The notes under the pieces were generated by a model. That model was given only the letters and a program-made list of their open reading frames with translations. It was not told where the DNA came from and made no database searches. DNA of 64,000 bases from sequence record MK327932.1; one strand, written 5' to 3'. The position numbers were made by a program, and so were the translations under genes. The stretch comes from Escherichia phage vB_EcoM_G2248. Shown here one piece after another: positions 1 to 44,559 of this stretch (its first letter is position 1; every line of letters starts with the position of its first letter).

Positions 1-278
1 TCATGACCAGGCAATAAAACTTCTTTGAAGCACGCTCGGTCGCCATCGGAAAACCATATATTATCACCAACATCGATAGAACTAATATAATCCCCTTCGT
101 GATTATAGATTGAACGTACATTACCCCAACGGTCTACCGTAGCGACAGTAAATGGTTTATCTAGATATGTAAACACACCATCAATATTAGGTTTTTGTTC
201 GTAACGCCAACAATCACGCAAAATACGCTTTTCGTCCTCACCAACCAACTTATATGTCTTCCCTTCTTCCCATTTCAT
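1..278 (-). CDS. hypothetical protein, 3' end outside window; paralog of 283..810
   Basis: ATG at 278..276; open frame to window edge; N-terminus MKWEEGKTYK matches MEWEVGKTYK of the next gene. Confidence 0.45.
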   Translation of the reverse strand, partial: MKWEEGKTYKLVGEDEKRILRDCWRYEQKPNIDGVFTYLDKPFTVATVDRWGNVRSIYNHEGDYISSIDVGDNIWFSDGDRACFKEVLLPGH

Positions 279-282
279 AATA

Positions 283-810
283 TCATCTCTCATTTTTGAT
301 ACGTGATTCTAATTGGATCATACGGTCTCGCGTTTGCTTGTATTCGCGGATAGCACCAATCCGGCTAGGCATACCATTTAGAACGCTCTTAATACCTTCT
401 AGGGTAGTGATTTTGGCAATACTATGTTGTAGCCCCGTCTTATCGATCAACTGAATGTCGTAGGCTTCCATAAGCAGACCCAGACGTTCTAAAGTTAGGT
501 CTTCTTCTTTTTCTTCCGATTCTGGAATCTTAGGTTCAATAGTAACTTCGGTAAAGAAACGACGCTCACCCGACCAAAACCACACACCGGAACAGCCAAT
601 AGGGGATTCTTTTAACGTCATAGAGTCGAAATCACTACCAATAATAGTAATTTCTCTAACATCACCATCATCGTCAATGTCTTCTACCCTAAACGGGCGA
701 CCAGCCAACAAGTCAACAATACATCTGTTAATAGACGACGAAAATTTAGTCAGTTCGGCTTTCGACGCTTCGCATTCAATCTTGTAAGTTTTACCAACTT
801 CCCATTCCAT
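283..810 (-). CDS. hypothetical protein
   Basis: Track ORF 283..819 starts with GTG; ATG at 810 has RBS GAGGTGA upstream. Confidence 0.5.
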   Translation of the reverse strand: MEWEVGKTYKIECEASKAELTKFSSSINRCIVDLLAGRPFRVEDIDDDGDVREITIIGSDFDSMTLKESPIGCSGVWFWSGERRFFTEVTIEPKIPESEEKEEDLTLERLGLLMEAYDIQLIDKTGLQHSIAKITTLEGIKSVLNGMPSRIGAIREYKQTRDRMIQLESRIKNER

Positions 811-820
811 AATAATCACC

Positions 821-1324
821 TCAAATAATTTTCACTGGAATACTATTAACAATCTTGTATTGTACTTGATTGTCGGACCCACGCCACGGTTTTTTCGTTG
901 GCATGTCTTTAATATACCGACCATCGATGAACATGTCAACTGATTCTACAATTTTTCTTTGCTCATCATTCAATTGGTCAAGGGTATAACCGGACCATAG
1001 CCAAATATCTTTATTTGGCATCCATGATTTTACTTCATCGATGATCCGCTGTACACCCTTTAAATTGCGTTTATACAGTGGATCGCCACCTAAGAATGTT
1101 AGCCCCTGAATAAAATCAGGTCTAAGCAGATCCAGAATCAATCCCATTGTATCATCGGTGAATGGTTCCCCGTTCTTAGGATTGAGTATGCTAGCATTAA
1201 AGCAACCATCACATGCGTGTGAACATCCGGTAACGTAAAGGGAGACTCTCACTCCCTCACCGTTAACCATATCACAATCTTTAATATCGGCATAGCGTAG
1301 TTTGCCGTATGTATCAGAACTCAT
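821..1324 (-). CDS. nrdG: anaerobic ribonucleotide reductase activating protein (radical SAM)
   Basis: Cys-rich motifs CSHACDGC and overall resemblance to T4 NrdG; sits downstream of nrdD; track start TTG moved to ATG at 1324. Confidence 0.85.
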   Translation of the reverse strand: MSSDTYGKLRYADIKDCDMVNGEGVRVSLYVTGCSHACDGCFNASILNPKNGEPFTDDTMGLILDLLRPDFIQGLTFLGGDPLYKRNLKGVQRIIDEVKSWMPNKDIWLWSGYTLDQLNDEQRKIVESVDMFIDGRYIKDMPTKKPWRGSDNQVQYKIVNSIPVKII

Positions 1325-1466
1325 ATTCAATTACCCCGAACTCGTTTACAATCTGCGCTTTATAGTAACCACCGCGAGATGCCAATAGATAAGCTGGGCT
1401 TAGGTATTCGTATTCACGGATTTCTACTTGTGCGTTTTCAGTTTCCCAAATCAGTAAAGTCCACAT
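1314..1466 (-). CDS. small hypothetical protein (50 aa)
   Basis: Track ORF 1314..1541 trimmed: a promoter/stem-loop cassette lies inside its 5' part; ATG at 1466 follows the conserved RBS GGAGAATCAAAT. Confidence 0.4.
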   Translation of the reverse strand: MWTLLIWETENAQVEIREYEYLSPAYLLASRGGYYKAQIVNEFGVIEYEF

Positions 1467-1508
1467 ATTTGATTCTCCTGTAAGGTTGTATCTCGTCTTG
1501 ATGAATAT

Positions 1509-1540
1509 AGTATAGGGGATCTCGCGATCCCCGTCAAGCA
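1509..1540 (-). promoter_or_regulatory. PeSL-like early promoter (-35 TTGACG, palindromic spacer GGGGATCGCGAGATCCCC, -10 TATACT)
   Basis: Reverse complement shows sigma70-like hexamers with an 18-nt palindromic spacer. Confidence 0.45.
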
Positions 1541-1541
1541 T

Positions 1542-2069
1542 TTATTTTAAATTTTTTCGAATGTATTCAGACCATTCCTTCCCTGTCATTTCGGACCCGT
1601 TCTGGAAACTGAAATATTCATACGGCATCGAGTCAAGATAAAACAGGATCATACATCGCGCCATATAATACCAATCACGATTAAAGTAAACTACGTTATC
1701 ACCAGTACCATCAGCACCTTTATCATAACCATCGCGGGTACGGGCGACCCATTGAATAGTATCATTTTTCTCACGGATAGTAACAGGTTCCCAATATCCA
1801 GCACATCCAGCATGACCACACGAACAAGTAAGGAAATATTGACCTTTTGCTTTGTTGTCATCCCATTCACGATGGATTGGTTCGATCTCGTGAAACAATG
1901 CCAAGCAATCATGATTATGCAACACTGGCTTACCATCAATCAATGCATGGAATGTATACAAACGACCAGTAGACAGATAGCTATCCTCACGCTCAACCAG
2001 TTCAATAGCAATCTTTTTAGCTCGTTCTTTGTGTCGTTGTGCTTTACGCTTACGGTTTAATGATTTCAT
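1542..2069 (-). CDS. hypothetical Cys/His-rich protein
   Basis: ORF with ATG at 2069 and RBS GGGGTGA; motif CSCGHAGCAG. Confidence 0.5.
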   Translation of the reverse strand: MKSLNRKRKAQRHKERAKKIAIELVEREDSYLSTGRLYTFHALIDGKPVLHNHDCLALFHEIEPIHREWDDNKAKGQYFLTCSCGHAGCAGYWEPVTIREKNDTIQWVARTRDGYDKGADGTGDNVVYFNRDWYYMARCMILFYLDSMPYEYFSFQNGSEMTGKEWSEYIRKNLK

Positions 2070-2086
2070 ATTCACCCCACACATTA

Positions 2087-2626
2087 TCAAAGGTCGCGAT
2101 ATAGTACATTATGAAAATGAGAACTTGCATTACCAATATTGTAGATAATAAATTCTTCATCCGGCGCTTGCGCTACAAATTGAGTATGAGCAACCGCCAC
2201 AACCTTAAAAATACGATCCGTGATCTTGTGTTTAATTTCTGCCCCTACTTCCATAGGAACATATTCATTTGTTTCTGTTTCAGTCGCAAAACAGCCATCT
2301 TCTTCATAAGCACGAATAAATCGGTCGCAATCAGTACGCTTAACAAATTCAAGAGTATATAATTCTCGTGAATTGTCGGTATAGACCAATACAGAATTAT
2401 TATGATAGCGAATCACATACAGGTTATTATCATCGTCAATTACGCAAAAGCTACGGATTCCTTCGCCTTGACTCCAGCAGATATTAACCACCGTTCCTCT
2501 AATAAAAAAACTTTCCTTTAAATTAAAACTAGCCAATGTGCTAGCGTGCATTTTAACAACAACACCATCACCAATTTCCAGTTTACGAAGTTTAACTTCT
2601 TTGCTCAGTACACAAAACATCATCAT
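2087..2626 (-). CDS. hypothetical protein
   Basis: ORF with RBS GAGAGGA before ATG at 2626. Confidence 0.5.
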   Translation of the reverse strand: MMMFCVLSKEVKLRKLEIGDGVVVKMHASTLASFNLKESFFIRGTVVNICWSQGEGIRSFCVIDDDNNLYVIRYHNNSVLVYTDNSRELYTLEFVKRTDCDRFIRAYEEDGCFATETETNEYVPMEVGAEIKHKITDRIFKVVAVAHTQFVAQAPDEEFIIYNIGNASSHFHNVLYRDL

Positions 2627-2655
2627 GTTGTCCTCTCGTTGTTTTCGATGTGAGC

Positions 2656-2683
2656 ATTATACATTAGCTAATCATGTTGTCAA
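2656..2683 (-). promoter_or_regulatory. sigma70-like early promoter (TTGACA, 16-nt spacer, TATAAT)
   Basis: Reverse complement reads gTTGACAacatgattagctaatgTATAATg. Confidence 0.55.
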
Positions 2684-2690
2684 CACCCCA

Positions 2691-2720
2691 AAACGAAAAA
2701 GCCGACCCTTTCGGATCGGC
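2691..2720 (-). terminator. rho-independent terminator downstream of nrdD
   Basis: Hairpin GCCGACCCTTTCGGATCGGC followed by a T-run on the minus strand. Confidence 0.6.
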
Positions 2721-2726
2721 TAAAAA

Positions 2727-4589
2727 TTACATGTGCTTAACGCGGTTTACCATCTCGGAGTGTTTCCCGTGGTTGAATGGACGCAGATCAACAGATCCAA
2801 GATATCCACTAACGCGACGGATAACATTCATCTTTTCCAGATTGTCATTGCCGCAATCAGGACAAACAAAACCAGACTCGGTCGCTCTCATTTCCTTAGT
2901 AGATCCGCATACATGACATACATCAGAAGGAGTATTAACACCGAAGTAGTGCAATTTATCCATTGCATAGTCTACTACAGTTTCAAGACCTTTCAGGTTG
3001 TTTTTCATGTCTGGGAACTCAACATAAGAGATCATGCCACCGGACGCCAGCCAGTGATAATCTTTCTCAAAGTCGATTTTCTCAAATGGAGTGACTTTCC
3101 GGTCTACGTCAAGGTGGAATGAGTTGGTGTACCAGTCTTTATCGGTAGCACCCTTAACAATACCAAATTGCTCTCGGTCCAGTCGATTAAATCGATAGCA
3201 AAGGCTCTCGGCTGGCGTACCGTAAAGACTAAACCCAAGTCCGGTTTCATCCTTCCATTTTTCAGTATAATGACGCAAGATCTTAAGAATATGTTTACCG
3301 TATCGCTGCGCATCTTCCGAATCAAACGGATGAACACCAAACAGGACGCTCAATACCTCATGTAAACCAATATATCCAAGAGAGATACTAGCGCGACCAT
3401 CTTTCAGAACTTCCAAAATTTCATCGTTTTGATGAATACGGAAAAATGCACCTTCTGTATACAGTACAGGAGCAACATTGGCTTTAGCCCCTTTTAAAGC
3501 GTCTACGCGACTCATGAGCGCATCAAAGCAAATAGGCATACGATTAGCTAGCTCTTGTTCGAATAGCTCAATTCTGCGCATTACAGACGCTTTACCAGCA
3601 CGACGCGCGGCAATAAGGGCAATACGCGGAAGATTTAGAGTCACAACACCTAAGTTATTACGTCCGTCTAATACTTCTTCGCCTTTCTCATTATGCCACA
3701 CACCCAGGAAGCTACGACAACCCATCGGGCTAACCGGAACACTAGATCCAGTGATACTACGGTTATTCTTCGCAGAGATATAATCAGGGTAAAGACGCTT
3801 ACTAGAACATTCCAATGCAAGTTGCTTAATGTCGTAGTTCGGATCTTCCGGTTTAAGGTTTAATCCTTCTTCTAAGAACATCACCAGCTTAGGAAACACC
3901 GGAGTTATACCGTCTTTACCTAAACCTTTAGTTCGAACTTTCAGGATCGCTTTCTGAATCAGTTTTTCTTCCCAGCTAGTACCCATACCAAAGGTTAAAG
4001 TCACAAAAGGCGTTTGACCGTTGGTGGAGAACAAAGTGTTGATTTCATATTCCAACGCTTGATACCCGTCTAGCGTTTCTTTTTCTGTCTTCTCTTGTGC
4101 ATAGAGAGTATCAGCTTTGATTCCGTAGGTTTCGGCATCAGCAAGGTGTTTATGATATGTTTTCTCAACGTATGGCGCTAAAACCTGATCGATGTTTGCA
4201 ATTGTGGTCCCGCCATATTGATGACTTGCCACCTGTGCGATAATTTGAGCGGTTACAGCACAAGCAACGCCGATCGATTTCGGACTTTCGATTTGTGCGC
4301 TACCCAATTTAAAACCATTCTCTAACATGTCTTTGAGATTAACAAGACAGCAGTTAGTAAACGGCATAGCGGGTGCATAATCCATATCATGATAATGAAT
4401 ATCACCATCTACATGCGCTTTATAGATGTGCTCAGGTAACACGGTTTTAGCAATCTGTTTAGACACAGCACCAGCAATCAGATCTCGACGTGTCGGGAAT
4501 GTTCGCGCGTCTTTGTTCGCGTTCTCTTTGCTTACTTCGTTTTCTTTACCCGTTGCGATCTCTGTAATGTCTTTGATTAGTTTTTCCAT
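2727..4589 (-). CDS. nrdD: anaerobic ribonucleoside-triphosphate reductase (glycyl radical enzyme)
   Basis: 620 aa; C-terminal zinc site CPDCG and glycyl radical motif RVSGYLG; single uninterrupted ORF. Confidence 0.9.
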   Translation of the reverse strand: MEKLIKDITEIATGKENEVSKENANKDARTFPTRRDLIAGAVSKQIAKTVLPEHIYKAHVDGDIHYHDMDYAPAMPFTNCCLVNLKDMLENGFKLGSAQIESPKSIGVACAVTAQIIAQVASHQYGGTTIANIDQVLAPYVEKTYHKHLADAETYGIKADTLYAQEKTEKETLDGYQALEYEINTLFSTNGQTPFVTLTFGMGTSWEEKLIQKAILKVRTKGLGKDGITPVFPKLVMFLEEGLNLKPEDPNYDIKQLALECSSKRLYPDYISAKNNRSITGSSVPVSPMGCRSFLGVWHNEKGEEVLDGRNNLGVVTLNLPRIALIAARRAGKASVMRRIELFEQELANRMPICFDALMSRVDALKGAKANVAPVLYTEGAFFRIHQNDEILEVLKDGRASISLGYIGLHEVLSVLFGVHPFDSEDAQRYGKHILKILRHYTEKWKDETGLGFSLYGTPAESLCYRFNRLDREQFGIVKGATDKDWYTNSFHLDVDRKVTPFEKIDFEKDYHWLASGGMISYVEFPDMKNNLKGLETVVDYAMDKLHYFGVNTPSDVCHVCGSTKEMRATESGFVCPDCGNDNLEKMNVIRRVSGYLGSVDLRPFNHGKHSEMVNRVKHM

Positions 4590-4602
4590 TGTATCACCTA
4601 TG

Positions 4603-4625
4603 AAAAAGCGGGATTTTCTCCCGCT
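4603..4625 (-). terminator. hairpin/terminator between the upstream gene and nrdD
   Basis: AGCGGGAGAAAATCCCGCT on the transcribed strand followed by a T-run. Confidence 0.5.
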
Positions 4626-4634
4626 CGTTGATAG

Positions 4635-5129
4635 TTATTTTACCAGTTCTGCTAATTCTTTTTCTTTAGCTTCTAGTTCAGCTTTAAGCTGTTTAATCTC
4701 TTGTCGCTTCTTATTAGCGGCTTCTTGCTTACTATTTCGGATAACCTGATCTAGATACAACTCCCAATCCTGAATATTTTTGATAATGTAACCGTCAACA
4801 TTAATTGGTCGGAGATTCAGTACAGCTTCCAGTTTAGTTGCAAAAACTTTAATTGCTGGTGTGAAGTATTCATATTCGTTATCTTCAAACCAATAACCTA
4901 GACTTGCATTCTCAATACGAAGATGAAGTTTAAGATCAAGGTCTTTATCATCGGTATATAGGTCTTTTACACACCCAATAGAATTAACAACAACTTTAAA
5001 ACGAATTTTATCTACACCACCAAACACATCTTCAAGAATATCAGCAATTGAGCTATTAGCGCAAGATTGGTCGCTGAATGCGTCAAGGTTTTCTTTAGTT
5101 ACAGTATACCAAACATCTTGTACCCACAT
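4635..5129 (-). CDS. hypothetical protein with C-terminal coiled coil
   Basis: ATG at 5129 preceded by the conserved RBS module GAGGATTATATTATG. Confidence 0.55.
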   Translation of the reverse strand: MWVQDVWYTVTKENLDAFSDQSCANSSIADILEDVFGGVDKIRFKVVVNSIGCVKDLYTDDKDLDLKLHLRIENASLGYWFEDNEYEYFTPAIKVFATKLEAVLNLRPINVDGYIIKNIQDWELYLDQVIRNSKQEAANKKRQEIKQLKAELEAKEKELAELVK

Positions 5130-5152
5130 AATATAATCCTCTCGTTGTTAAG

Positions 5153-5187
5153 TGGGAGTATTATAGCATACTCCCTTCGCATGTCAA
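5153..5187 (-). promoter_or_regulatory. PeSL-like early promoter with palindrome GGGAGTATGCTATAATACTCCC
   Basis: TTGACA at 5187..5182, TATAAT at 5165..5160; the palindrome spans the -10. Confidence 0.55.
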
Positions 5188-6362
5188 GCACTAACTTTTT
5201 TCTTTACTGCTTTCACCTTCTGGCGAATTGCTCGAATCTCTTCGATCTCTTTTTCAGTCTCTTTAACAATTTCTTTGCGATTCTGAATATCTGTATCTAG
5301 ATTATCATCAAGTTTAGGCAGCATGTCAATCAAGAACTTTTTAAAGTCTTTCAGGTTTCGGATAACAGCACCTTCACCCATTACCGCCACGCCTACACCA
5401 TCCGGCAGGTCGCCAAACAGTTTAACCAGTTCAGACAGATGATCATGATCTTCTAGTGCTTCTTCCGGTTCAGATGGCAGTTCCACAAAGTAATAACGTT
5501 CATCATTGCTGATCAGGTGATACCAGCAAAGCCCAAAAGATTTAGGAGTATATTCTACACCACCAACTTCAACTGCGTCAACACTTCCGAAAGAATCTAC
5601 TTTAGTTACCTTAAATCCATGTTCCAGCGTTTTAATAATTTCAATAACATGACTGGATACGGTTTCAGTATTAAACCAATGAGGCAAATTATGTGGATTT
5701 GGCTTGTATCGTTCGCCTACTTTAAATCTCTGACCACGCTCTTGCATACGGACATATTCAACTCGCGTGATTTCCGCGAAGTATTCAAATTCGCCACCGT
5801 CAAACACAGAAGCCCATTGATCACAAAAACGATCTGCCTTAACAGTTTCACCTTTCGCGGTGATCATGGTAGCTGATCCGTGCAATTCTTCTTCAACTAA
5901 AAAGCCATATTCGACAAAATCAACAAGTTTCATAGCTTCTTTGTGATCTGGATCATGCTCTCCCCAGAATCGCTTAAATTCTTGCAAACCTTCTGGGGTA
6001 AACGAATAACATTTACCTTTTTCAAAGTAAGTCGGCATTGCATCCTCTTTCTTGTTCATCGCTTCGTATGCCTCTTTTGAGATGCGTTTAAAGTATTTAC
6101 GCTCATTGTGCATAATCATAGTAGCCCAATAATCAACAATATCATTAGCGGAATAAACTACATCTCCAGCTTCAATAGTAATAACATGACCGTGGTCATC
6201 TTTTTCTAATACTTTAAAGCCCTTTTCTACGATTTCAGCAACACGAATATGACCACGGCGCGAAGCATCGGTCAGAATAATTGAATAGCGAGAAAAGTCT
6301 AGAAACTCATCTTTACCGCCTTCACGGAATGCATAGCAATGACCTTCAAAGAATTTAGCCAT
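5184..6362 (-). CDS. hypothetical protein with repeated ~65-aa domain (member of tandem paralog family)
   Basis: 392 aa; internal repeats share GF(K/L)V and NERKYFKRI motifs with the two following genes. Confidence 0.6.
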   Translation of the reverse strand: MAKFFEGHCYAFREGGKDEFLDFSRYSIILTDASRRGHIRVAEIVEKGFKVLEKDDHGHVITIEAGDVVYSANDIVDYWATMIMHNERKYFKRISKEAYEAMNKKEDAMPTYFEKGKCYSFTPEGLQEFKRFWGEHDPDHKEAMKLVDFVEYGFLVEEELHGSATMITAKGETVKADRFCDQWASVFDGGEFEYFAEITRVEYVRMQERGQRFKVGERYKPNPHNLPHWFNTETVSSHVIEIIKTLEHGFKVTKVDSFGSVDAVEVGGVEYTPKSFGLCWYHLISNDERYYFVELPSEPEEALEDHDHLSELVKLFGDLPDGVGVAVMGEGAVIRNLKDFKKFLIDMLPKLDDNLDTDIQNRKEIVKETEKEIEEIRAIRQKVKAVKKKVSA

Positions 6363-6384
6363 AATATAATCCTCTCGTTGTTTA

Positions 6385-6422
6385 GATGGGAGTATCTTAC
6401 TACTCCCGTTTCATCATGTCAA
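6385..6422 (-). promoter_or_regulatory. PeSL-like early promoter with palindrome GGGAGTAGTAAGATACTCCC
   Basis: TTGACA at 6422..6417 overlaps the stop codon of the upstream gene. Confidence 0.5.
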
Positions 6423-6985
6423 GCGTTAAATGACTTTTGGATCTCTTTCAGTTCAGCTACTTTATCGGCGCTATATTTTGCTTGATGTTCCATGCGCTTA
6501 AGCTCACCTTTGATATAGGTTTCTAGCTTAGGTTTATTCTCAATCAGAAAATCTTTCAGGTCATCGGCATTTTTAAAGTATAGCTGATTATCAAAGCTAA
6601 AATCTTCCAGCGTCAATGATACCAAAGAAGACTTCGCAAACAAGTTAATCAGATCTTCCAGAGATTCTTCTTTCTTAATTGGTTTCATTTCTTCAAACTG
6701 CTTTTTAGTGATGCGTTTAAAGTATTTTCGCTCGTTTGCAGCAATCAGAACAGATGCACCTTCATACTCATGAGTTTCTACCAGATACACACGCCCCATC
6801 GCATCAACAGTGAGAACTTTAAAGCCGTTACAAAGCACGTCATACAAGAACTTATTATGTTGCGGACATCGTTTGATAAATTCTGCGACTGTTTCTGCAC
6901 TACGGAAAGTATAGTAACGACCTCGTTCAAAAACAGCGTCATTGGGTGACTTAACCGAATATACTTTGTATGTTTTCTGTACCAT
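6419..6985 (-). CDS. hypothetical protein, paralog of 5184..6362
   Basis: Shares NERKYFKRITKKQFEEM and GFKVLTVD motifs; start placed at ATG 6985 behind RBS GAGGATTATATT. Confidence 0.55.
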   Translation of the reverse strand: MVQKTYKVYSVKSPNDAVFERGRYYTFRSAETVAEFIKRCPQHNKFLYDVLCNGFKVLTVDAMGRVYLVETHEYEGASVLIAANERKYFKRITKKQFEEMKPIKKEESLEDLINLFAKSSLVSLTLEDFSFDNQLYFKNADDLKDFLIENKPKLETYIKGELKRMEHQAKYSADKVAELKEIQKSFNA

Positions 6986-6999
6986 AATATAATCCTCTA

Positions 7000-7272
7000 T
7001 CATTTCACTAATTGAACAGCACGGAACAGAATGCGGTCACACGGAAGCAGCATAAATTCCCAACGCGGATCAAAGTCTTTAGCGGTATATGTTTTCCCAT
7101 CAACCGAGATTTCACTTACATAACCAATAGGTGACACTTTAAGAACAGTAAATCCATTCTTGATGACTTCGTAGGTATCTTTCAATCCTTCGTAGTCATC
7201 CTCTAGGAAGTCTTTACGTGCTTGCTCAGATTTAAAAACATAGGCCACACCGGATTTAAACATCTTACGCAT
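7000..7272 (-). CDS. hypothetical protein, single copy of the paralog domain
   Basis: 90 aa with GFTVLKVSPIGYV motif; RBS AAGGAGAATCAACA before ATG 7272. Confidence 0.5.
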   Translation of the reverse strand: MRKMFKSGVAYVFKSEQARKDFLEDDYEGLKDTYEVIKNGFTVLKVSPIGYVSEISVDGKTYTAKDFDPRWEFMLLPCDRILFRAVQLVK

Positions 7273-7296
7273 TGTTGATTCTCCTTCTTGATTAGA

Positions 7297-7332
7297 TGGG
7301 AGTATTTTACTACTCCCATTTCATGTTGTCAA
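7297..7332 (-). promoter_or_regulatory. PeSL-like early promoter with palindrome GGGAGTAGTAAAATACTCCC
   Basis: TTGACA at 7332..7327, -10 TAAAAT, palindrome spans the -10. Confidence 0.5.
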
Positions 7333-7335
7333 CCA

Positions 7336-7809
7336 CTATCTTAATCTTTGTATGAATTGTTTCTTATACTTCTTCGTGATCTCTTCTCTTGTATCCGCGT
7401 CACAGTAATCGAAACCTTCTGCGTCCATAATAGCAACCATCTCCGCTCGTGTCAAGCGTGAAAATCGTTTTACTTTATCAACAGCATATTGAGGATGTAA
7501 ATGATTGTTGGTGTAGTCTCCTTTGATGTAATTAACATAGTTTGTAGCCCAAACAACGAAATCAGCACCTAAAGCACCAACACCAAACCGTTTAAAGTCT
7601 CCGGTCAACGATCCTTCTAGGCGGTTGCAACACGAATGAAGCAATCCCCTTACGCGGCCTTGCCCTTTCCCATCTAGATCGTGGTCGTGGTCAAGATGGT
7701 TTTTGCTCATATCCTCAAAAAGTGGCAATTGACAAAGGGGGCAAATGCCCCCCTGTTTTTCGAATAGTTCTTGTTTGTACTCTTTAGCACTCTTAGCAGT
7801 CAGTAACAT
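7336..7809 (-). CDS. 49: endonuclease VII (Holliday junction resolvase)
   Basis: Motifs HLDHDHD, GxVRGLL and CxxC match T4 gp49; track TTG start moved to ATG 7809 (MLLTAK...). Confidence 0.9.
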   Translation of the reverse strand: MLLTAKSAKEYKQELFEKQGGICPLCQLPLFEDMSKNHLDHDHDLDGKGQGRVRGLLHSCCNRLEGSLTGDFKRFGVGALGADFVVWATNYVNYIKGDYTNNHLHPQYAVDKVKRFSRLTRAEMVAIMDAEGFDYCDADTREEITKKYKKQFIQRLR

Positions 7810-7833
7810 AAATTCACCCTCCAAAGAAGGTAT

Positions 7834-8115
7834 TTAACCATTAATCTTGTTTTTGACTACAAAGGATCGGAACTCATCAAAACCACCGATATAATCACCA
7901 TCATAGAAAATCTGCGGCATGGTGGCAATAACTTCTACCCCTGCGCGATCCTGAATATCGGCAATGATAGAATCAATCTTTACCGGACGACCGTTTTCGT
8001 CCACACCATCATTAACCGGAATGTAGATGTAAGGGATCTTACGCGCTTCACAAAGGCGCTTTGCATTCTGGCAATACTTACAGTTGTAACCTTCAAAACC
8101 AAAAATTTCTACCAT
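7834..8115 (-). CDS. nrdC: glutaredoxin/thioredoxin-like protein
   Basis: CKYCQNAKRL active site and MPQIFYDGDYIGGFDE resemble T4 NrdC; ATG at 8115. Confidence 0.8.
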   Translation of the reverse strand: MVEIFGFEGYNCKYCQNAKRLCEARKIPYIYIPVNDGVDENGRPVKIDSIIADIQDRAGVEVIATMPQIFYDGDYIGGFDEFRSFVVKNKING

Positions 8116-8123
8116 GTTATACC

Positions 8124-8936
8124 TCAATCTACGTTAGTTACATAAACTTCTTGCGTATCAGAAGACTTACCACCTGAACGATCTAGGCAATAGGTCTTAT
8201 TCAACAGGACGCAGTTTAAATCATTCCGCTTGATAAAGTCAAGGAGATGATCATTTACCTTTCCCTTATGATGCGTGACATTACTGATACCAAACTGAAA
8301 ACCACGCGCCATAATCGATTCTACCCACTGATAGAATTTAATCTCTTCCTCGTCACTCCAGAACTTATTATATTCCGCAGAAGTGATAAGGTACGGCGGG
8401 TCCAAATAAACGAAATCACCTGGCAAGATCTCGATCTCGTCATAGCGACCAGACGTAAAACTGATTCGACCGTCTTTGTTTTCTTCCTTAAAATTCAGGA
8501 CACGCTCTACCGCGTTTTCGTTAAAAGTCCGGCGACCAAAATTAGCATTAAATTCTCCCTTCCTGTTATGGCGGTTAATGTTGCTAAAACTGTGCTGAAT
8601 CAGAACAAACAGAGATAGCGGATCTGGATTCTCATTATACTTCTTGCGGAATGCCATATAAGAATCTTTATCATCACGAGACAAACCATTCTCGGCAATA
8701 ATCAGCTTGATCGTAGAAACCGGATCAGGACACTCGTCAATCGCTTTGTACGCGTCAATTAAGCGGTGATCATAGTCATTAGCCAGAACACCCCCTTCGA
8801 CGTACAGAGACACGCTCAAGCCACCACAAAAGGCATCAACAAAGCGGTTATAGTGCTTAGGGAAATACTTACTAACACTTGGCAATAACTTTTCCTTATT
8901 GCCAGTATAGGGAATTAAACCTAATGCTTTCTTCAT
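8124..8936 (-). CDS. dam: DNA adenine methyltransferase (Dam family)
   Basis: NRFVDAFCGGLSVSL (motif I), DFVYLDPPY (motif IV), YNKFWSDEEE; close match to T4 Dam. Confidence 0.85.
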   Translation of the reverse strand: MKKALGLIPYTGNKEKLLPSVSKYFPKHYNRFVDAFCGGLSVSLYVEGGVLANDYDHRLIDAYKAIDECPDPVSTIKLIIAENGLSRDDKDSYMAFRKKYNENPDPLSLFVLIQHSFSNINRHNRKGEFNANFGRRTFNENAVERVLNFKEENKDGRISFTSGRYDEIEILPGDFVYLDPPYLITSAEYNKFWSDEEEIKFYQWVESIMARGFQFGISNVTHHKGKVNDHLLDFIKRNDLNCVLLNKTYCLDRSGGKSSDTQEVYVTNVD

Positions 8937-9367
8937 TATCCCTTCCTCAAATAAGTTCGCTCAATCTCTACCAGTTCGAAAAATTCATCCCAATCACACG
9001 GAAAATTGCAGTTTCCAAAATGGTCTTCATTGTAAAGCTCTTTACCGGATGGCAACTTAATATCTGTTACAGTATACCAACCGCAACAATCACAATCACC
9101 CTCAACAACAGAAACTTTCGTCGGAATTTGCATCATTGCCAGATAGGTCGGCACGTCAGACTGTTCAAAGATCATGTAACCTTCATTGTCAAACGAAACA
9201 AAATTATCATCGCCCAAAAAAGGGATATAGTGGTCATAATCGGTTACAGGTTGACCGTGCAATTCCCATTCTACAATTTTAACATTACCACTAAACTTGA
9301 TACCCATCATATCAACCATAAAATGAGTATCGTCAATGTAAATCTTACTAGGAGTTGGATAAACCAT
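8936..9367 (-). CDS. hypothetical protein
   Basis: ATG 9367 behind conserved RBS GAGGATTATATAATG. Confidence 0.5.
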   Translation of the reverse strand: MVYPTPSKIYIDDTHFMVDMMGIKFSGNVKIVEWELHGQPVTDYDHYIPFLGDDNFVSFDNEGYMIFEQSDVPTYLAMMQIPTKVSVVEGDCDCCGWYTVTDIKLPSGKELYNEDHFGNCNFPCDWDEFFELVEIERTYLRKG

Positions 9368-14892: not shown

Positions 14893-17037
14893 TTATTCAC
14901 GTCCATTTGTATAGTAGTGTTTGAATCGACCGTAACCAGTTTCAATGGTCATTGTTCTTTGGTGAACAATAGCCCAATAACCGTTACAGGAATCTTGCAG
15001 ATACAAATCTTTACCTTTCATAAACTCATTAAAGATTGTTTTCTGCCAGTCATAATAGACAGAATCTTCAATCTTATCCATCCAACCGTGTGGGTCTTCA
15101 AGCAGTTCAACAAGTTCATCGATAACCCAATACGGACACGGACTAAATCGACCTTTACTAAATTCGTTGAACACAGTAACGGTTTTAGCTTCCGGTCTAG
15201 GTTCATCAGGTTCTTCCGGTCGACGATTAACCACAACCTGAACATATTTTGTATAACCGATAATTTCCCCAGAGTCCAACTCATCGTTATTGTTCTGGTC
15301 AGCAAAAGCAACGAATCTATAGACTCCAGAGTCACCTATAGTAGCATTAACTTTTGTGTATATCGGTGTTTTGGGATCGATAATCGGCAACCGAACACCA
15401 TTTTTACTAAACTCATACGTTGGAACGTATGTAGAAGGAGGATTTAATGTCGTTGCTTCTAATGTCAAAGTATCCCCTTCCATAATCTGTACAGGATGAG
15501 GTCCGTCAAATTCCATATTAGGAACAACTTCAACATTATAGGTTGCACGCCCTGCAATATCATAATCATGATGCGCACTATATGGGTCTACACTAGGACT
15601 ATCTCTATATTCATGCGCCCAAATGCCATTATGTTCACGATCCGCAGAGTCAGTAATTTTATACTCTTTAGCCTCAATTGGTAGTTCGGTCACAAAAACA
15701 TCATTTTTTGTTATAACCAAAGAACGAGTTTGAGTAAAATCGCTACTTGCGGGTGGCTCTGGATCGACGATCTTAATAACAATAGGTTCACCAACCTCAA
15801 TATTTCGATAATCGTATTCTTTGTCATAAATGTCAAGCATACGACGGTCGTAAAATAATGGCCTTCCTTTATTGAGGTCATATGCACCATCTTGATTAGA
15901 AGGGGCAACTAGTAATTGTAAAGCAACGCTATTATCATACTGCAAGTCCGATAAAGTAATTCGGTCATAACCTTCATCGCCATATTTTTTGCTTTGTAGA
16001 GTTTTACCACCCAACATCCACGTAAAATAAACATTATTATTAATCAAACTATAATGTCGATTCCACGTATTATCGGATGTTACTAATGGCATATCTAGAT
16101 TGACGGTGGACCCAGAAGGATAACGAAATTCAACGGAATTAAAATCACGATCAAAAAATTCATTGTCTTTGATTGTTACCGTGAATCTATGACGATCACC
16201 ATCAATATATGCTGTCCCTTCTCTGGTTTCACTTGCGGCCTTATATGCACGAACCAAAGCAACATAAACACCCGCATCGGTTTCTTGAGCATGTTTCGTT
16301 ACAAACAGAGTCCTGTCTGTAGATTCATAAATTAAGCTACCATCTTCTCTTTCCAGACGATAACGGACAACGGTATATTCATCATTGGCGGGAGAATCGT
16401 CTGTCACCGTAAAATAGACAGGAGCATATTTCTGTGCGTTAAAAATTTCCGCGCTTTCCTGAATGGTGGCCTCAAACGGATAAACAAATTTCACGTCACC
16501 CGCTTCATCGCTAAGTTCCATTCTATATGTGCCAGAAAATTCAGGCCATGCAAATTTTGCAATTTTAAATTCACGATGGTCTAAACCAAGATCCCCGTCA
16601 ATAGTATCAACAAGACCGTCATTATAATAAAGGTCGATAGAAATGTTTTCTGGGATATGAATACGAAAAACAATTTTAGCCTTTATTTCGTCACCAACCA
16701 CAAAGGAAGTTGGAGGATATACATATTCAACATACTGATTATCAAATAATTCAAATGTGAAATTTTCCGTGCCGATATCAACGGATTCACCAGCAAAATC
16801 ATTATCATCTTGGGCATAGCCACGAACATTAACAGACCATCCTGTTTTATCGCTTTCTTTCACAGATTTTAATTCAAAAGACGGTGTATCGGTTGTAGCA
16901 ACAACCACCCCACCTTTTTTCCAAACATAACCTTTTTTCGGTTTAGTTGGATCATCTGATTCGGCAGCAATTGAGCACGCGAACGTATGAGGAAGCCAAA
17001 TGGTTGTGTTAATGCTAGTATCTTTTACTTCTGGCAT
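14893..17037 (-). CDS. large hypothetical protein (714 aa)
   Basis: Long ORF, ATG 17037 with RBS AGGGGGA; no counterpart recognised among T4 genes. Confidence 0.6.
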   Translation of the reverse strand: MPEVKDTSINTTIWLPHTFACSIAAESDDPTKPKKGYVWKKGGVVVATTDTPSFELKSVKESDKTGWSVNVRGYAQDDNDFAGESVDIGTENFTFELFDNQYVEYVYPPTSFVVGDEIKAKIVFRIHIPENISIDLYYNDGLVDTIDGDLGLDHREFKIAKFAWPEFSGTYRMELSDEAGDVKFVYPFEATIQESAEIFNAQKYAPVYFTVTDDSPANDEYTVVRYRLEREDGSLIYESTDRTLFVTKHAQETDAGVYVALVRAYKAASETREGTAYIDGDRHRFTVTIKDNEFFDRDFNSVEFRYPSGSTVNLDMPLVTSDNTWNRHYSLINNNVYFTWMLGGKTLQSKKYGDEGYDRITLSDLQYDNSVALQLLVAPSNQDGAYDLNKGRPLFYDRRMLDIYDKEYDYRNIEVGEPIVIKIVDPEPPASSDFTQTRSLVITKNDVFVTELPIEAKEYKITDSADREHNGIWAHEYRDSPSVDPYSAHHDYDIAGRATYNVEVVPNMEFDGPHPVQIMEGDTLTLEATTLNPPSTYVPTYEFSKNGVRLPIIDPKTPIYTKVNATIGDSGVYRFVAFADQNNNDELDSGEIIGYTKYVQVVVNRRPEEPDEPRPEAKTVTVFNEFSKGRFSPCPYWVIDELVELLEDPHGWMDKIEDSVYYDWQKTIFNEFMKGKDLYLQDSCNGYWAIVHQRTMTIETGYGRFKHYYTNGRE

Positions 17038-23780: not shown

Positions 23781-24356
23781 TTATTTTGGATCTGGGAAAT
23801 TCAATAGAGCATATTCTCCATAAAATTTCCTAGCTGCATTATCATAAGCGATTGCAGCTTCGATTTCTGTGTCATATTGTCCAAGAACATGTCTTTGTAG
23901 GTTGACCATTATACTAGCTCTCCATTTCTTACGCAAATCCTTCCTGTTACACTTACTAACACCCTTATACACACTAGAAAACTTTTTAGACTTCTTCTTT
24001 CTATTATGTTGATTTTGCGCGTCGGTTGCCTCCCTAAGATTTGGAGGATTGTTATTAGCAGGATTACCGTCAATATGATCAATTAATCTAACTTGCGTCC
24101 CATGTTCTAGAAACCAAACAACCCTATGCACGAATAGATGAACTCTAGGAAGACCGTCATCTCTACTATGCCAAAATCTAAGATGACCATCTTTATTTGT
24201 TCTGACTTTAACTAAATCGCCGTGTTTATATCTACTCCCTAATGGTCGTCCTTTGATAGCTTTACTATCGACTCTATAATATAAGATACCCTCTATATGA
24301 GCATATCTAAGTTTTATCTCGTTTTGTAGGGATTCATCCCAATATTTAAAAGCCAT
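23781..24356 (-). CDS. HNH homing endonuclease with C-terminal AP2 DNA-binding domain
   Basis: HNH motif LIDHIDGNPANNNPPNLREATDAQNQHN; AP2-like SSVYKGVS...WRASI...YDTEIEAAIAYDNAARKFYG. Confidence 0.75.
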   Translation of the reverse strand: MAFKYWDESLQNEIKLRYAHIEGILYYRVDSKAIKGRPLGSRYKHGDLVKVRTNKDGHLRFWHSRDDGLPRVHLFVHRVVWFLEHGTQVRLIDHIDGNPANNNPPNLREATDAQNQHNRKKKSKKFSSVYKGVSKCNRKDLRKKWRASIMVNLQRHVLGQYDTEIEAAIAYDNAARKFYGEYALLNFPDPK

Positions 24357-32886: not shown

Positions 32887-32919
32887 TAAAAAAGCCCGTC
32901 AATGACGGGCTTAATTTTT
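32886..32919. terminator. bidirectional rho-independent terminator
   Basis: Hairpin GCCCGTCAATGACGGGC flanked by an A-run and a T-run. Confidence 0.65.
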
Positions 32920-33946
32920 AATATGTATCAGCTAATTTAATTATGTTATCAAGTTCCGTTATTGGTAAAGTTTCTGTGTATCCATCTTTCAACATAGATT
33001 TATCAACAACGCCACATTGATAAGTTCTCTTTATTTCCTTTTCAAGTTCCCACGGAATCCAGCCATCAACACTTTGTTTGACGTAAACAAGTTTATGAAC
33101 AAACTTAGATTTCTGCATATGTTGTTTCATTCTGGTTTCCGGTAATTCATTGGTTACACCAAACTTTATAAATTTATCATCTAACGTCTGGATATAAAAA
33201 TATCCTATCTCAGATGGACGATAGCCAGAAGAACTACATTTCGGACACCCTTTAGCATTTCTGCTGAACGTACAATATCTTACGGAAAATTCGGCGTCAT
33301 GTTTTGTACATTTAAGTTTTATCCATGAATTTGCAGTACCTATCCATTCACCATCGACACCTATATATTCATACCCTAACTTTTTACATTTATCTTCTAT
33401 TCTAGATAGTGCATCTTCTACGGGAACGACATATTCCGTCTTAAATTGTTCAGCCGCACATTTCTTACAACCACATGTACCATGATTTTTAAAATCAAAG
33501 AACTTTGTATTCTTCCAAATATGGTCATGTTTCTTGCATCTAAGAATAATCTTAGTAATTTGTGATTTCCAGCCACCAACAAATCCCAAAAATTCATAAT
33601 CAAGATCTTTACATTTTTCTTCAATGAATTTGGTTGCTTCCTCTTCTGTCATAACTCCCCTACATTGAGGACAACCAACAATAACCTTTTTAGCATAGAA
33701 ACTATTACTGGAAACATCATAGACAGATCCATGCTTATTGCATTGGATAACAGATCTAGTCAATTTTCCTTTCCATTCTCCAGAAAATCCTAAGAATGTA
33801 TGGTCGACAAGTTTACACCTTTCAATAACTTTATCCGCAAATTCTCTAGGAGATTTTGTTACTTTGTTTACTCTGTATTCTATTTCTTCCGGTTGACGAA
33901 GATAATAAACGTGGGGATTGCTCCCCACGGAATTAATATTAAGCAT
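32918..33946 (-). CDS. putative GIY-YIG-like nuclease with three N-terminal zinc-ribbon repeats (candidate homing endonuclease)
   Basis: Three ~45-aa repeats each ending in a CxxC-type motif (CPQCRG, CGCKKC, CPKCSS); C-terminal GYFYIQTL...FIKFGVT...R...H; ATG 33946 with RBS AAGGAAGG. Confidence 0.4.
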   Translation of the reverse strand: MLNINSVGSNPHVYYLRQPEEIEYRVNKVTKSPREFADKVIERCKLVDHTFLGFSGEWKGKLTRSVIQCNKHGSVYDVSSNSFYAKKVIVGCPQCRGVMTEEEATKFIEEKCKDLDYEFLGFVGGWKSQITKIILRCKKHDHIWKNTKFFDFKNHGTCGCKKCAAEQFKTEYVVPVEDALSRIEDKCKKLGYEYIGVDGEWIGTANSWIKLKCTKHDAEFSVRYCTFSRNAKGCPKCSSSGYRPSEIGYFYIQTLDDKFIKFGVTNELPETRMKQHMQKSKFVHKLVYVKQSVDGWIPWELEKEIKRTYQCGVVDKSMLKDGYTETLPITELDNIIKLADTY

Positions 33947-34760
33947 CCTTCCACACCTTCCTTGCATCATAGTTTTTACCTTTAGAAACAAATTTATATG
34001 TGTTAAGGTAGATAATATTGCTCCAGTCTTTCGGGCTAATCTCAACAAGTTTTGTTTTAATGTGTCCCGGTAGATATGCTTTGATCATGTGATCACTTCC
34101 ACGCATACCTTTTACATCGCTCCATTTGATTTTTAAGCGTGTTTTATTGCTCAAGGTAGGAGTAGATGCATATTGCTTTAAAAGTGCCTCTAAAAACTGC
34201 TGACGGGCTTTAGGAGTTACATAGTGTAAGTTAAGACCCAGCATCACAGTATTACCCGCCTTTGTCTTAGAATCACCCAGACAAATGATCAGCGGGAAAA
34301 CATCCCAATATGGCAAAGTGTCTTTATACTTAGCATCATACATAAAGGTATAGATTCGCCCTACTTGCGGTTTTACAATCTGGTGTCCCTTTATTCCAGC
34401 TTTTATTGTTTTAGTAAACCACTCCTGTGATTTTTCTTTAGGACGACTCTTTGATACAGCACGCATAGACGCACGAAAATCATTAATCATCATCATTGCG
34501 CGTTGCTGCTTATTGAGACCCTTTGCGCCTTTCCCTTTTAGTTTTTCAACTTCTATTGCTGTTTTAATTTCGCTGGCATAACGAGACATACTTTTAGTGA
34601 AAGTCGCATAGGCTATTCCCTTAGAATCTGCAAATGCTTTAGCTGTCATGCCTTTGGCTTTTGCTTTCGCAAATTCTACACCCAATTCGACCCACTGTTT
34701 AGACTTTCTTTTTTGGGGAGACGGCTTTTCGTCTTCTGTGATTATTTCAAATACGCTCAT
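33939..34760 (-). CDS. 2: DNA end protector protein gp2
   Basis: 273-aa basic protein at the T4 gene 2 position upstream of gene 4. Confidence 0.65.
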   Translation of the reverse strand: MSVFEIITEDEKPSPQKRKSKQWVELGVEFAKAKAKGMTAKAFADSKGIAYATFTKSMSRYASEIKTAIEVEKLKGKGAKGLNKQQRAMMMINDFRASMRAVSKSRPKEKSQEWFTKTIKAGIKGHQIVKPQVGRIYTFMYDAKYKDTLPYWDVFPLIICLGDSKTKAGNTVMLGLNLHYVTPKARQQFLEALLKQYASTPTLSNKTRLKIKWSDVKGMRGSDHMIKAYLPGHIKTKLVEISPKDWSNIIYLNTYKFVSKGKNYDARKVWKDA

Positions 34761-38534: not shown

Positions 38535-40435
38535 CAAAGCAAAAGATTACACAAATTCCTGATATTTTTAATGCTGCTACATTCGATGAAATTAAAAGCG
38601 CATTAACAGACTGGATGAGAAACCAGGAAGAATTTAAAGATTTTGATTTTAATGGTGCTGGTATTAACGTATTGATGGACTTGCTCGCATATAATACCCT
38701 TTATATTCAGCAATTTGCCAACGCCGCGCTATATGAATCTTTTATCAGAACGGCAATTAAGCGTAGTTCAGTTGTTCAAGCCGCGCAAGATTTAGGATAT
38801 TTGCCAGCAAGTAAAACTAGTGCATCAACTACAATTATGTTGCATGTATCACATCCACGAAATCCGGCAAGTATTCGAATCCCACGAGGAACTAAATTTA
38901 TTGCAAGTGTGGATCGCCAGACTTCTTACCCATTTGTGACTACAGAAGACGTTGTGAGCGTTTTAGGTTCAAATGGTTTATATACGCCTATGCTTAAAGT
39001 CGCACAAGGTCGTATTGTTCGTACAGAAATGTTATTTGATCCGAAGAAACAAATTCTGATCCGCGACCCTGATATTGACCGCGCTCAGGTTAAGTTGTGG
39101 GTAGATGGTGCTGAATGGAAAGACTGGACACGAGAAAGCATTGTTAACGCAACTGGCGCTAGTAATATTTTCTATATGCGTGAAACCGTAGACGGTCATA
39201 CAGAAATCTTCTTTGGTGAAGGTGAATCAACTTTATCTGCTGCTGGCGGGGCGCTGGAAGCAAATTATATTGGTGGACTTAAGCCGTCAACTGGTGCTAA
39301 TATTGTTATCGAATATATTAGCACTAAAGGCGCGGAAGCAAACGGTTCAGTTAATTTTACATATGCGGATACCCTTGCATCTATCTCTATTGTTAAAATT
39401 ATTGAGAATCCGACAAATGATCGTGATTATGTCGGTGCAGATGGTGGTGGTGATCCTGAATCAATCGAACGTATCCGTGAACTTGCTCCGGTAATGCGTG
39501 AATCTCAGCGTCGTTGTGTTACTGCTTCTGACTATGAGGCTTTTGTATCTAGCCGTTTTGGTAGTATTGTTCAGGCGGTACAATGTTTCACCGACCGAGA
39601 AAAACCGGGTTATGCTTTTGTTGCGGTTAAGCCTAAATCTGGCTTGCGCTTGACAACTGTTCAAAAAGAAGATATGCGGGATTATCTGGCAAAATATAAT
39701 CTTGCCCCTATCACGCCGAGCATCATTGACCCTAACTATCTGTATATTAAACAGAATATTAAAGTTTCCTATTCAATCAATGACTTGTCAGAATCAGAGC
39801 AGTGGTTGCGAGGTGCGGTTATTGATCAGATAGATGCATATTATACCGACGAAGTGGAAATTTTTAACCAGACCTTTAGTAAGTCTAAAATGCTTGCTCG
39901 TATTGACAAGGCTGACGTGTCTGTGATAGGTTCTAGTGCAGAAATAGAGATGGTACGAGAGATCGACAACTTCTATAAAGCACCTATGGCTGGAATCAAG
40001 TTCTTAAACCAATATAAGAGCGGAATCAAGTCTAGTTCGTTCAACTTCGAAAAGGACGGTAAACAATACCCGATCCATTATGTAAGTACAGAAATGAACA
40101 AAGAATCAGGTTTAGCTAAATTGCTGGTTGGACCTTTCCCTGTTGGTTCTACAATCGCTTTACCGCACTATTCCGGCACTGATTTTGATAAAGAGGTTAT
40201 CGACGGTGCGGACCTATACTTTGAGGTTGGAGAGGTTCAGCATTATGAAGACCTTATTTCATGGGATCTGGGTAAACTGAATATCAATAGCGATCGCTTT
40301 ACTGGTTCATATATTGAGTTGACAGCTAAACCGATTGCTGATAACATTTTTACTAAAGACGGTTCTTTGATCGTGTTTGAAAACGATCTCCGTCCTCAGT
40401 ACACAACTATTAGTCTGGAGGCAATTGCTCAATGA
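38531..40435 (+). CDS. 6: baseplate wedge protein gp6
   Basis: 634 aa, synteny and size. Confidence 0.8.
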
Positions 40436-43400
40436 TTAAAGCGCCTAGTGTAACTAGCTTGACAATAGAAAAATTGTCTGCTAATCAGGCGTATATCACA
40501 TGGGATGACGTAGGCGAAAACTTCTTTTATTTTGTGGAGTTAGCCGAAACCAGAACACGAGACGGGGAGATCATCCCCGTCGATGAGTTAAGCTGGGTAA
40601 ACCTGGGATATACTGCCGACCAAAACTGGTTTGAGGACAAAAACCTTTTTCCAGAATATTATTACAAGTTTCGTGTAGCAGTAGCCGCAGAAGGATTTGA
40701 ACAAAGTAAATGGATTGAAACCGAAGAATTTCAGACATTTAAAACAAACGCATATAATTTTTCTATGATGCGAGAGTTCAACCTTGCAAACGAGTTTGTT
40801 AAGCAAAAGTTTACATATGATAATCGTGATTATATTAAATTCAATACTGATTTAATTCAAGCATCATTGATGCAGGAAGATTTTGTTTTCAGTCCTGAAT
40901 ATGCAAACATCACAAATATTTCTAACAAAATTATTGTTGATGAAAACTTTCATGAAATACAGGATCACATAGAAAAAGTTTGTATTGATATAAACCGCAC
41001 TATGTTAGCGGAAATGAACGGTGTTTTGTACCTTTTCGAACGGTTCCAGCCGATCGTGAAAGTGTCAAATGATAAAGGTCAATCATGGAAAGCATATAAA
41101 GCGTTTAACGACCGTGTAGGCAATCCGGTTTCCCGTACATGCGTTTATCAGTCTAAAACCACTACTTACGTTTTAGGATATGACCGAATCTTTTACGGAC
41201 GACAAGCTAGAGATACTCGATGGAGCGCGGACGATGTTCGATTTAGTGATGATACGATCACTTTTGCAAAGGTTGGTGACGAGAACGATTTAGGCTTTGA
41301 CGTTGAGGTCTTTGGTGTATTTTCCAGATTAACAGGGGACACCACAAAATACGCCGAAGCTATGGCATGTAGTGATGACTATTTGTGGGTTGGTGCTAAG
41401 GATGTTATTCGCCGGATTCGTCTTAAGAATACTCCTGTTGATACCGTACAGGGTTCGCCTACGTTTGGAGAAAAAATATTCGATCCTGATGTTATCCGAG
41501 TAACAGGAAATGATAAAGCTGTCATTCAGAAAATGGATGTGATCGACGGTAAATTGCTTGTATTTGTTACTGGTGAAGTTAAACAGCGTTATCAAGATCC
41601 GACTAAACCTGAAAACGTTGTCCCGTCAGACGATGCGGGTGTATACTTAATTGGGAGTGATGGTCTGTCTTTTCAGAGAGTATTTGGCAACACTCCGCAG
41701 GAAAGGGAATATATTCATCATGGGTTCAGTAATATGTCAACCAATGGTGATGAGGTGTTCATAAGCCATTATAATCATCATTTCGAAAGCATTTTACCTG
41801 ATCCAGAAACTGCCGCGAAATATGAATTAAGCGAAGCTGTAAAATATTCTCAGGAGCCAACTTATCTAACTGATAAGAAAATACATCAAACTACTTTCAG
41901 AGCAAGTTATGATGATTTGCGTATTTGGGAATTAGGACCGCAAGCGTATTATAATGAGGCTGATTATACATGGATGCGTCGAAACGGTGTTCGTGTATGG
42001 ATCACAAATGATAATCGCCCGTTGGTTGTTTATCCAGAAGTTGTCTATACGCAGGAAGTTGATACTTCCGGCATTCTTGATAAAAACAGAATTAACCGTG
42101 AAGTTTATGATAAAGGGACCGTGACCTGTTATCTTAACAATGTTAAATTTGAAGGATTCAAACAATATGCATCCGGTGTAATGTTCCATAAAAACACGGG
42201 GGAGATCATTGGGTTCTATCAATTTAACTATCGCGTTCGTGATCAGGTTGGTGTATATTGGAAACCTACAAATGTAGCATTTGTTGCTGAATTGCAAAAT
42301 CAGGTTCGGGAGGTTCCCTGGGTTCCGGTTCACTACGATCGAGAGCAAGATCCAGATTTGCGACCTTTACTGAATAAGATGACACCGGATAGCTTTTTAC
42401 TTGAGAACGAAAATTTCAGAAAATTCTCTGAATATTATCTGCAATTCTTAAGTGATGGTTCAGGAACATATTATAATAAACTAAAAAATCTGATTAAAAA
42501 CAAATATCCACGCGAGCAAGATGCATATGAGTATCTTTGGTCAGAGATGAACAAACGAAACATCTATGCAGATAAAAACAAGCGAGATGCGGTCGTAAGA
42601 TTCTTTGAATCCCGCAAATCAGATTTTTATTCCACTAAGGGCGTGGAGGCTTCTTACAAGTTCTTGTTTAAGTTACTTTATAATGAAGATGTGGAAATTG
42701 AGGTTGAATCACAAGCCGGACTAGAGTATGATATTGTTGTTAGTTCAACGAACATTGACGAGGATATCGTAGGTCGCACGATTTATACTCCAACCGGACG
42801 GGCTAACGTGACGTATCTTGAAAGGGAATATGAAGGTGGACGTCTACGCTGGCGAGTAACCATTCATAACCTGATCGGGCGGTTTGAAGAAGGTCAAGTG
42901 ATCAAATCAGAGAAAACAGCGTTTGAGGGGATGATCCTTGTTGGTGTACGTGGTAAAGAGTTGTTGAGTAGTTCAATCGACTATATCAACCGCTCACGAA
43001 GCCAATACACCATGAAGATTAAAAGTGCATTGCCAGTTTCGCGCTATGCAAATGATGTAATGCGATTCGTTCATCCTGTCGGCTTTGGGTTTATCGGTGT
43101 TACCCTGCTTACGATGTTCATTAACAGCGGGTTAAGTATGAGACACGTAGAAACTATAATTCAATCTCTGAAAAATTATAAGTTTGACAGCGGATTGCCT
43201 AGCGTGTATCCTGATCGTGTTGCTGATCTTGATGTTGATGGAAATATTAAGATTGACCCACTAACAGGGAAACCATTATACTTAACGTCACCGACAATTG
43301 GCGAAGAGTTCCCTGTTCCTCCTGAATATGATCAGGAGAACAGCGAATTGTTCCACGGACTTAAAGCAAGCGAACGAAGATTTGCAATGAGTCCACTGTT

Positions 43401-44506: not shown

Positions 44507-44521
44507 GTGTATGATTTTAAA

Positions 44522-44548: not shown

Positions 44549-44559
44549 CATTTTTGGTG

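Follow-up and report, generated by a model that had tools for sequence, protein, structure and literature searches.

The nrdD gene of phage T4 (sunY) is interrupted by a group I intron of 1033 nt that encodes the GIY-YIG endonuclease I-TevII – the original prediction had taken the presence of a group I intron as its starting point, and the T4 annotation, Rfam and the literature (PMC2988022) bear it out. T4 introns occur variably among T-even phages (Edgell et al. 2010, PMC2988022). In the survey of Petrov et al. 2010 (PMC2993671), the three HEG-containing introns were confined to the T-even cluster, convincing evidence for movement across clusters was lacking, and no intron-encoded HEG was listed for RB49 or phi1. 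An interruption of a different kind is annotated in phage JSE (two records), in which the nrdD module is ~770 nt longer and a 'Homing endonuclease' separates two pieces of nrdD.

The window – the whole 64,000-nt stretch of Escherichia phage vB_EcoM_G2248 (MK327932.1) that was analysed – is that of an RB49-type (Krischvirus) coliphage, judging from its similarity to sequenced relatives. Between positions 2500 and 4800 it has 99.1% DNA identity to Escherichia phage RB49 (NC_005066, genus Krischvirus), and it is 98–99% identical there to about 55 more RB49-like phages. With a probability of roughly 95%, its nrdD can be regarded as an ordinary, functional, intron-less gene of an RB49-type phage. 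The evidence for this comes from the identity of the gene, the position at which T4 is interrupted, the separate position at which JSE is interrupted, and the distribution of introns among relatives.

The nrdD gene and its surroundings

The ORF list contains an ORF of 620 codons plus stop on the minus strand, with its ATG at 4589 and its stop codon ending at 2727. The original prediction had placed an uninterrupted nrdD at exactly these coordinates, leaving out the strand, and the ORF is indeed continuous across them. The gene, its partner nrdG and the signals in its flanks are as follows.

2727..4589, minus strand: nrdD, a continuous 620-codon ORF plus stop (Pfam, PDB and RB49 comparison)
821..1330, minus strand: nrdG, the radical-SAM activase of NrdD (Pfam Fer4_12, E = 1.8e-43; RB49 annotation)
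2700..2721, minus strand: terminator-like GC-rich hairpin with a T-run, 5 nt past the nrdD stop codon (pattern scan and sequence reading)
2656..2683, minus strand: sigma-70 promoter-like site (TTGACA, 16 nt, TATAAT), a consensus match only (pattern scan, 12/12 matches)
4594-4599, minus strand: Shine-Dalgarno-like AGGTGA, 4 nt ahead of the nrdD ATG (read from the sequence)
4607-4625, minus strand: hairpin AGCGGGA-GAAAA-TCCCGCT with a T-run in the nrdD 5' flank (read by eye; missing from the pattern-scan list)

By homology, 2727..4589 is nrdD, the gene for the large subunit of the class III (anaerobic) ribonucleoside-triphosphate reductase. Its product matches the Pfam family NRDD (PF13597) at 585.6 bits (curated cut-off 26.2; E = 1.4e-175), and the match is full length, with residues 22–619 covering model positions 1–562 of 562. 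Residues 496–598 match Gly_radical (E = 5.6e-23), and there is a weak zinc-ribbon match at residues 557–581. The closest solved structure is that of T4 NrdD (PDB 1h78, E = 4e-255), aligned over residues 15–619 of the window protein and 14–604 of the T4 protein.

Mapping of residues to T4 NrdD showed that Cys80/81, Cys291, Asn312, Cys558/561/576/579 and Gly595 are conserved in the window protein, their T4 counterparts being Cys79/80, Cys290, Asn311, Cys543/546/561/564 and Gly580. In T4 NrdD these residues include the active-site cysteines, the zinc site and the radical-bearing Gly580. Three of the corresponding stretches of DNA are referred to below.

3717..3719, minus strand: codon of Cys291, the catalytic cysteine (T4 Cys290; residue mapping)
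2805..2807, minus strand: codon of Gly595 in the RVSGYLG motif, the predicted glycyl-radical residue (T4 Gly580; mapping and Pfam Gly_radical)
2853..2918, minus strand: C-terminal four-cysteine zinc site (Cys558, Cys561, Cys576, Cys579; residue mapping)

The nrdG gene lies 1.4 kb downstream of nrdD on the same strand, with three small ORFs between the two, and its ORF also has a weak Radical_SAM match in Pfam. NrdG, as a radical-SAM protein, would generate the glycyl radical on Gly595, and NrdD activated in this way would reduce ribonucleoside triphosphates to dNTPs anaerobically, as homology predicts. The nrdD genes of the window and RB49 differ by 17 nt, with one amino acid change (K142E), and those of the window and spliced JSE differ by 37 nt and three amino acids. 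That nearly all of these differences are synonymous indicates purifying selection.

The gene order in the window is as in RB49: nrdG, three small ORFs, nrdD, one ORF, frd.2/goF-like ORFs, gene 49, nrdC and dam. Relatives of the window phage have annotated terminators at the position of the 2700–2721 hairpin. The promoter-like site at 2656–2683 is just downstream of this hairpin and points at the next ORF, and a second perfect sigma-70 consensus site is found at 5160–5187 (minus strand). Mobile regulatory cassettes are reported for RB49/phi1 (PMC2839356), and the layout of stem-loop and early promoter in the window (2656–2721, 5160–5187) may relate to them. Around nrdD there is also a set of paralogous ORFs, all on the minus strand (283–819, 4635–5129, 5184–6362, 6419–7003 and 7000–7272), which have PHROGs 622, 5347, 3710 and 8944 in common. 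In RB49 they are annotated as 'frd.2 / goF mRNA metabolism modulator', and the 392-aa member of the family holds a repeat in three copies.

Beyond nrdD, the window differs from RB49 by insertions and deletions, including two extra endonuclease-like genes. These genes are in insertions at ~23.8–24.4 kb and ~32.9–33.9 kb, neither of which is near nrdD.

23781-24356, minus strand: free-standing endonuclease gene with HNH_3 and AP2 domains (PHROG 99, E = 1.4e-43)
32918-34048, minus strand: ORF with two CapR-homology domains (PHROG 681 'endonuclease', E = 2e-79)

The ORF at 23781–24356 lies between a vs.8-like ORF and an endolysin-like gene, in an insertion of ~645 nt that is absent there in RB49. 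The ORF at 32918–34048 adjoins gene 2 in an insertion of ~1 kb relative to RB49, and is probably another free-standing mobile endonuclease. In its longest form this ORF extends into the gp2-like ORF (33939–34760) at the latter's 3' end, so its real start is probably further downstream. The window also encodes a 714-aa ORF (14893–17037, minus strand) of which ~2 kb is missing from RB49; it had no Pfam match, and its only PHROG match was a weak C-terminal one to a Hoc-like (head decoration) family. RB49 positions 45289–46198, which hold an annotated g38-like adhesin gene (RB49p079), are missing from the window. Positions 1–251 of the window were not aligned to RB49 by megablast, suggestive of local replacement at the window edge; the remaining window is collinear with RB49.

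The T4 intron site

In the T4 annotation (T4 40000–60000), nrdD is a two-piece join over 2851 nt with I-TevII inside it. Since T4 NrdD has 605 aa (1818 nt with the stop codon) and the gene spans 2851 nt, the intervening sequence is 1033 nt. The junction was located by generating all frame-keeping 1033-nt deletions and screening them by group I rules (U as the last base of exon 1, G as the last base of the intron). Four deletions follow these rules, and only the loss of T4 gene nt 539–1571 keeps an NrdD-like join (AFQAYEYEVNTLF). A T4-like nrdD of 1818 nt that naturally lacks the intron (phage vB_EcoM-101117BS1) aligns with T4 nt 1–536 and 1572–2851. Together, the deletion analysis and this intron-less gene place the T4 junction after nt 538, within the codon of Tyr180, which is split with T in exon 1 and AT in exon 2. 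What we take to be the 30-bp I-TevII homing site is restored exactly in spliced T4, and only at the chosen junction; 22 of its 30 positions match in the window. In phage vB_EcoM_FN the same position is taken by an intron variant ~66% identical to that of T4.

Window NrdD and spliced T4 NrdD, aligned globally, share 385 residues over 603 aligned positions (63.8%). Tyr181 of the window protein is opposite T4 Tyr180, in an alignment that is locally ungapped (ALEYEINTLFSTNGQTPFVT in comparison with AYEYEVNTLFSSNGQTPFVT). The gaps closest to Tyr181 are single residues ~18–23 positions upstream, and there is no gap of more than 9 residues anywhere.

4047..4049, minus strand: Tyr181 codon TAT, the counterpart of the T4 intron insertion site (alignment to spliced T4 NrdD)

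The T4-equivalent junction falls between window positions 4049 and 4048 and is unoccupied. A missing segment or a frameshift at this position is what the original prediction had named as evidence against an uninterrupted gene, and the alignment to the T4 exon junction that it had proposed contains neither.

The window was also searched for introns and endonucleases. As a positive control, Rfam RF00028 detected the T4 intron (105.3 bits, E = 3.6e-26). At Rfam gathering thresholds no group I intron was found anywhere in the 64-kb window, and in a permissive scan (E <= 10) of positions 1–9000 there was no group I signal or degenerate intron remnant; the three matches in that scan were at chance level and to unrelated families only (snoRNA, DapZ). 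By Pfam and PHROGs, neither NrdD nor the adjacent ORFs tested had an endonuclease domain (GIY-YIG, HNH or any other). Because the nrdD CDS is continuous, there is no room in it for an internal sense-frame ORF such as I-TevII. Rfam, Pfam and PHROGs are thus in agreement with the original prediction that neither an intron nor an intron-encoded endonuclease is present in the gene. The three ORFs between nrdD and nrdG, along with the ORF upstream of nrdD, were considered as homing endonucleases and rejected, having no Pfam match and only PHROGs of unknown function.

It is conceivable that the gene merely looks uninterrupted, and that the ORF conceals an in-frame intervening element – an intein or an in-frame intron. 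Other phage RNR genes are reported to contain inteins and introns (PMC3653736), and window NrdD, at 620 aa, exceeds the 605-aa T4 NrdD by 15 residues. However, the extra residues are small scattered indels, the largest of 9 residues, far below the length of an intein; the alignment had already ruled out an intein or in-frame insertion as their source. The only Pfam matches in NrdD were NRDD, Gly_radical and the weak zinc ribbon, with no intein/Hint, LAGLIDADG, HNH or GIY-YIG domain, and the Rfam scans, including the permissive one, were negative for an in-frame intron. A concealed element is thus exceedingly improbable. The same can be said of a decaying or non-functional copy, in which the absence of an intron would be irrelevant: all of the catalytic residues are kept, NRDD is matched over its full length, the changes relative to RB49 and JSE are nearly all synonymous, the partner gene nrdG is intact, and the gene is flanked by a Shine-Dalgarno-like motif and a terminator-like hairpin. 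The chance that such a copy is what the window holds is minute.

The intron site at the catalytic cysteine

An RB49-type nrdD can also be interrupted at a position other than that of T4.

Positions 3436-4195 of the JSE locus analysed (from NC_012740), minus strand: JSE nrdD group I intron, 760 nt (blastn against window nrdD)

By blastn, nt 1–870 and 871–1863 of the window nrdD flank the 760-nt JSE insert, and the two segments are contiguous in the window. The boundaries of the insert are unambiguous, with U ending exon 1 and G ending the insert, and its removal leaves a 620-aa ORF with the three residue differences from window NrdD given above. Compared with Rfam group I models the insert is sub-threshold, at 27.4 bits (E = 5.5e-4), the match including the conserved GAAGAUAUAGUCU core. 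Its 5' end is closely like that of the T4 nrdD intron and has the same guide, GCUCAU, and its ORF (YP_002922130.1) encodes I-HmuI-like NUMOD and HNH_3 domains. The insertion site is directly 5' of the Cys291 codon, which corresponds to the boundary between window positions 3720 and 3719 and is empty in the window. It is 110 codons from the T4 insertion site. The same intron and boundary recur in phage phiS, whose match to the window ends at 3719 and whose record starts inside the intron. The contrast with T4 drawn in the original prediction holds, the window being continuous at the T4 site, with the qualification that JSE and phiS are interrupted elsewhere in the gene.

Related introns, ~77% identical, occur in nrdD of the rV5-like Phapecoctavirus phages. 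In Phapecoctavirus nieznany, a phage of an unrelated genus (positions 2001–2771 of the locus analysed, from NC_052659), a 771-nt intron is found at the identical codon boundary, with …AUGGGU before it and UGUAGAAGUUUC after it. Over its first 12 nt, exon 2 of JSE reads as in nieznany (TGTAGAAGTTTC), while the window (3708–3719) and RB49 have TGTCGTAGCTTC. JSE and the window differ there by three synonymous changes, all within 9 nt of the exon start. This clustering has P = 0.0015 for a pre-specified 12-nt window and is not significant across all possible windows. It was rejected as proof of co-conversion on that account, and was kept as a suggestion. Together with the related introns in Phapecoctavirus, it suggests that the JSE intron was acquired across genera with a short co-conversion tract.

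All six positions of the window exon end, AUGGGU, pair with the intron guide, and the flanks of the site are nearly those of JSE, so the window nrdD has an unoccupied and apparently compatible site for a JSE-type intron. We tentatively propose that the window nrdD may be a naive, fully compatible recipient for an intron of JSE/rV5 type, and that this intron may have come from a phage of an unrelated, Phapecoctavirus-like genus with the first ~10 nt of exon 2 co-converted; we put this at somewhat under an even chance. If it is true, an intron would currently be spreading between genera into a codon of the catalytic site, and the window phage would have the uninvaded allele. This interpretation bears on JSE and phiS more than on the window itself.

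Intron-less nrdD among relatives

At least 80% of the T4 intron was found in 69 phage records, 25 of them at >= 99% identity and the others with the ~66%-identical variant type. A query with T4 nrdD exon 2 returned 810 records at >= 80% coverage, and by this count about 8.5% of T4-like nrdD genes (69 of ~810) are interrupted at the T4 site. Among RB49-like records, 55 of 58 have an nrdG–nrdD module that is collinear to the window and has no insertion in nrdD. An intron-less nrdD is the majority state. The feature was already known from the RB49 annotation and published intron surveys. Since most relatives lack an intron, and most T4-like phages do as well, the observation made for the window is correct but ordinary.

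We infer that the T4 intron never arrived in this lineage, because homing needs co-infection and homologous exon flanks, and the DNA of the window is well diverged from that of T4. In a codon-aligned comparison, the nrdD DNA of the window and T4 is 62.9% identical overall and 58–68% identical around the site, with a longest exact run of 13 nt. Against the T4 intron guide GCUCAU, the sequence ending the window exon at the T4 insertion site (UGGAAU) would form pairs at only three of six positions. The nrdD mRNA would need no splicing, because neither a T4-type nor a JSE-type intron appears to have entered the lineage.

Alternatively, an nrdD intron of T4 type or JSE type may once have been present in the lineage and then been precisely removed, for instance through recombination during co-infection with an allele lacking the intron. 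Taken by itself, the sequence would fit 'never invaded' and 'invaded, precisely lost' alike. The patchy presence of introns (69 of ~810 T4-like and 3 of 58 RB49-like records) fits cycles of gain and loss, and the exons of JSE and the window are only ~2% apart. No footprint of such a loss is seen, however: the window has the RB49 sequence at the JSE site, without the three synonymous changes that accompany the JSE intron, and at the T4 site the exon end pairs with the guide at just half of the positions. Moreover, the great majority of relatives are intron-less, which makes gain by a few of them the simpler history. For these reasons we consider precise loss very unlikely, and prefer a lineage that neither intron has entered.

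The wider importance of the locus is small – the gene call is sound, there is one exon, and an intron-less nrdD is usual for an RB49-type phage. The window nrdD can serve as a reference "empty site" allele, both for the I-TevII site of T4 and, more relevantly, for the site of the HNH intron found ahead of the catalytic cysteine codon in JSE, phiS and rV5-like phages, and could be used in studies of intron homing and co-conversion between phage genera.

Three known systems are closest to the window locus. T4 nrdD (sunY) is orthologous, encoding the same class III RNR large subunit, with shared catalytic residues and nrdG downstream. It differs in that T4 has the HNH gene mobC between nrdD and nrdG, while the window has neither mobC nor the I-TevII intron. 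The exons of JSE and phiS are ~98% identical to the window nrdD, and their genomic context is shared. In RB49 the same 1863-nt stretch is annotated as a single-piece nrdD CDS (RB49p056, NP_891627.1), with the same length of 620 aa and the same neighbours as in the window.
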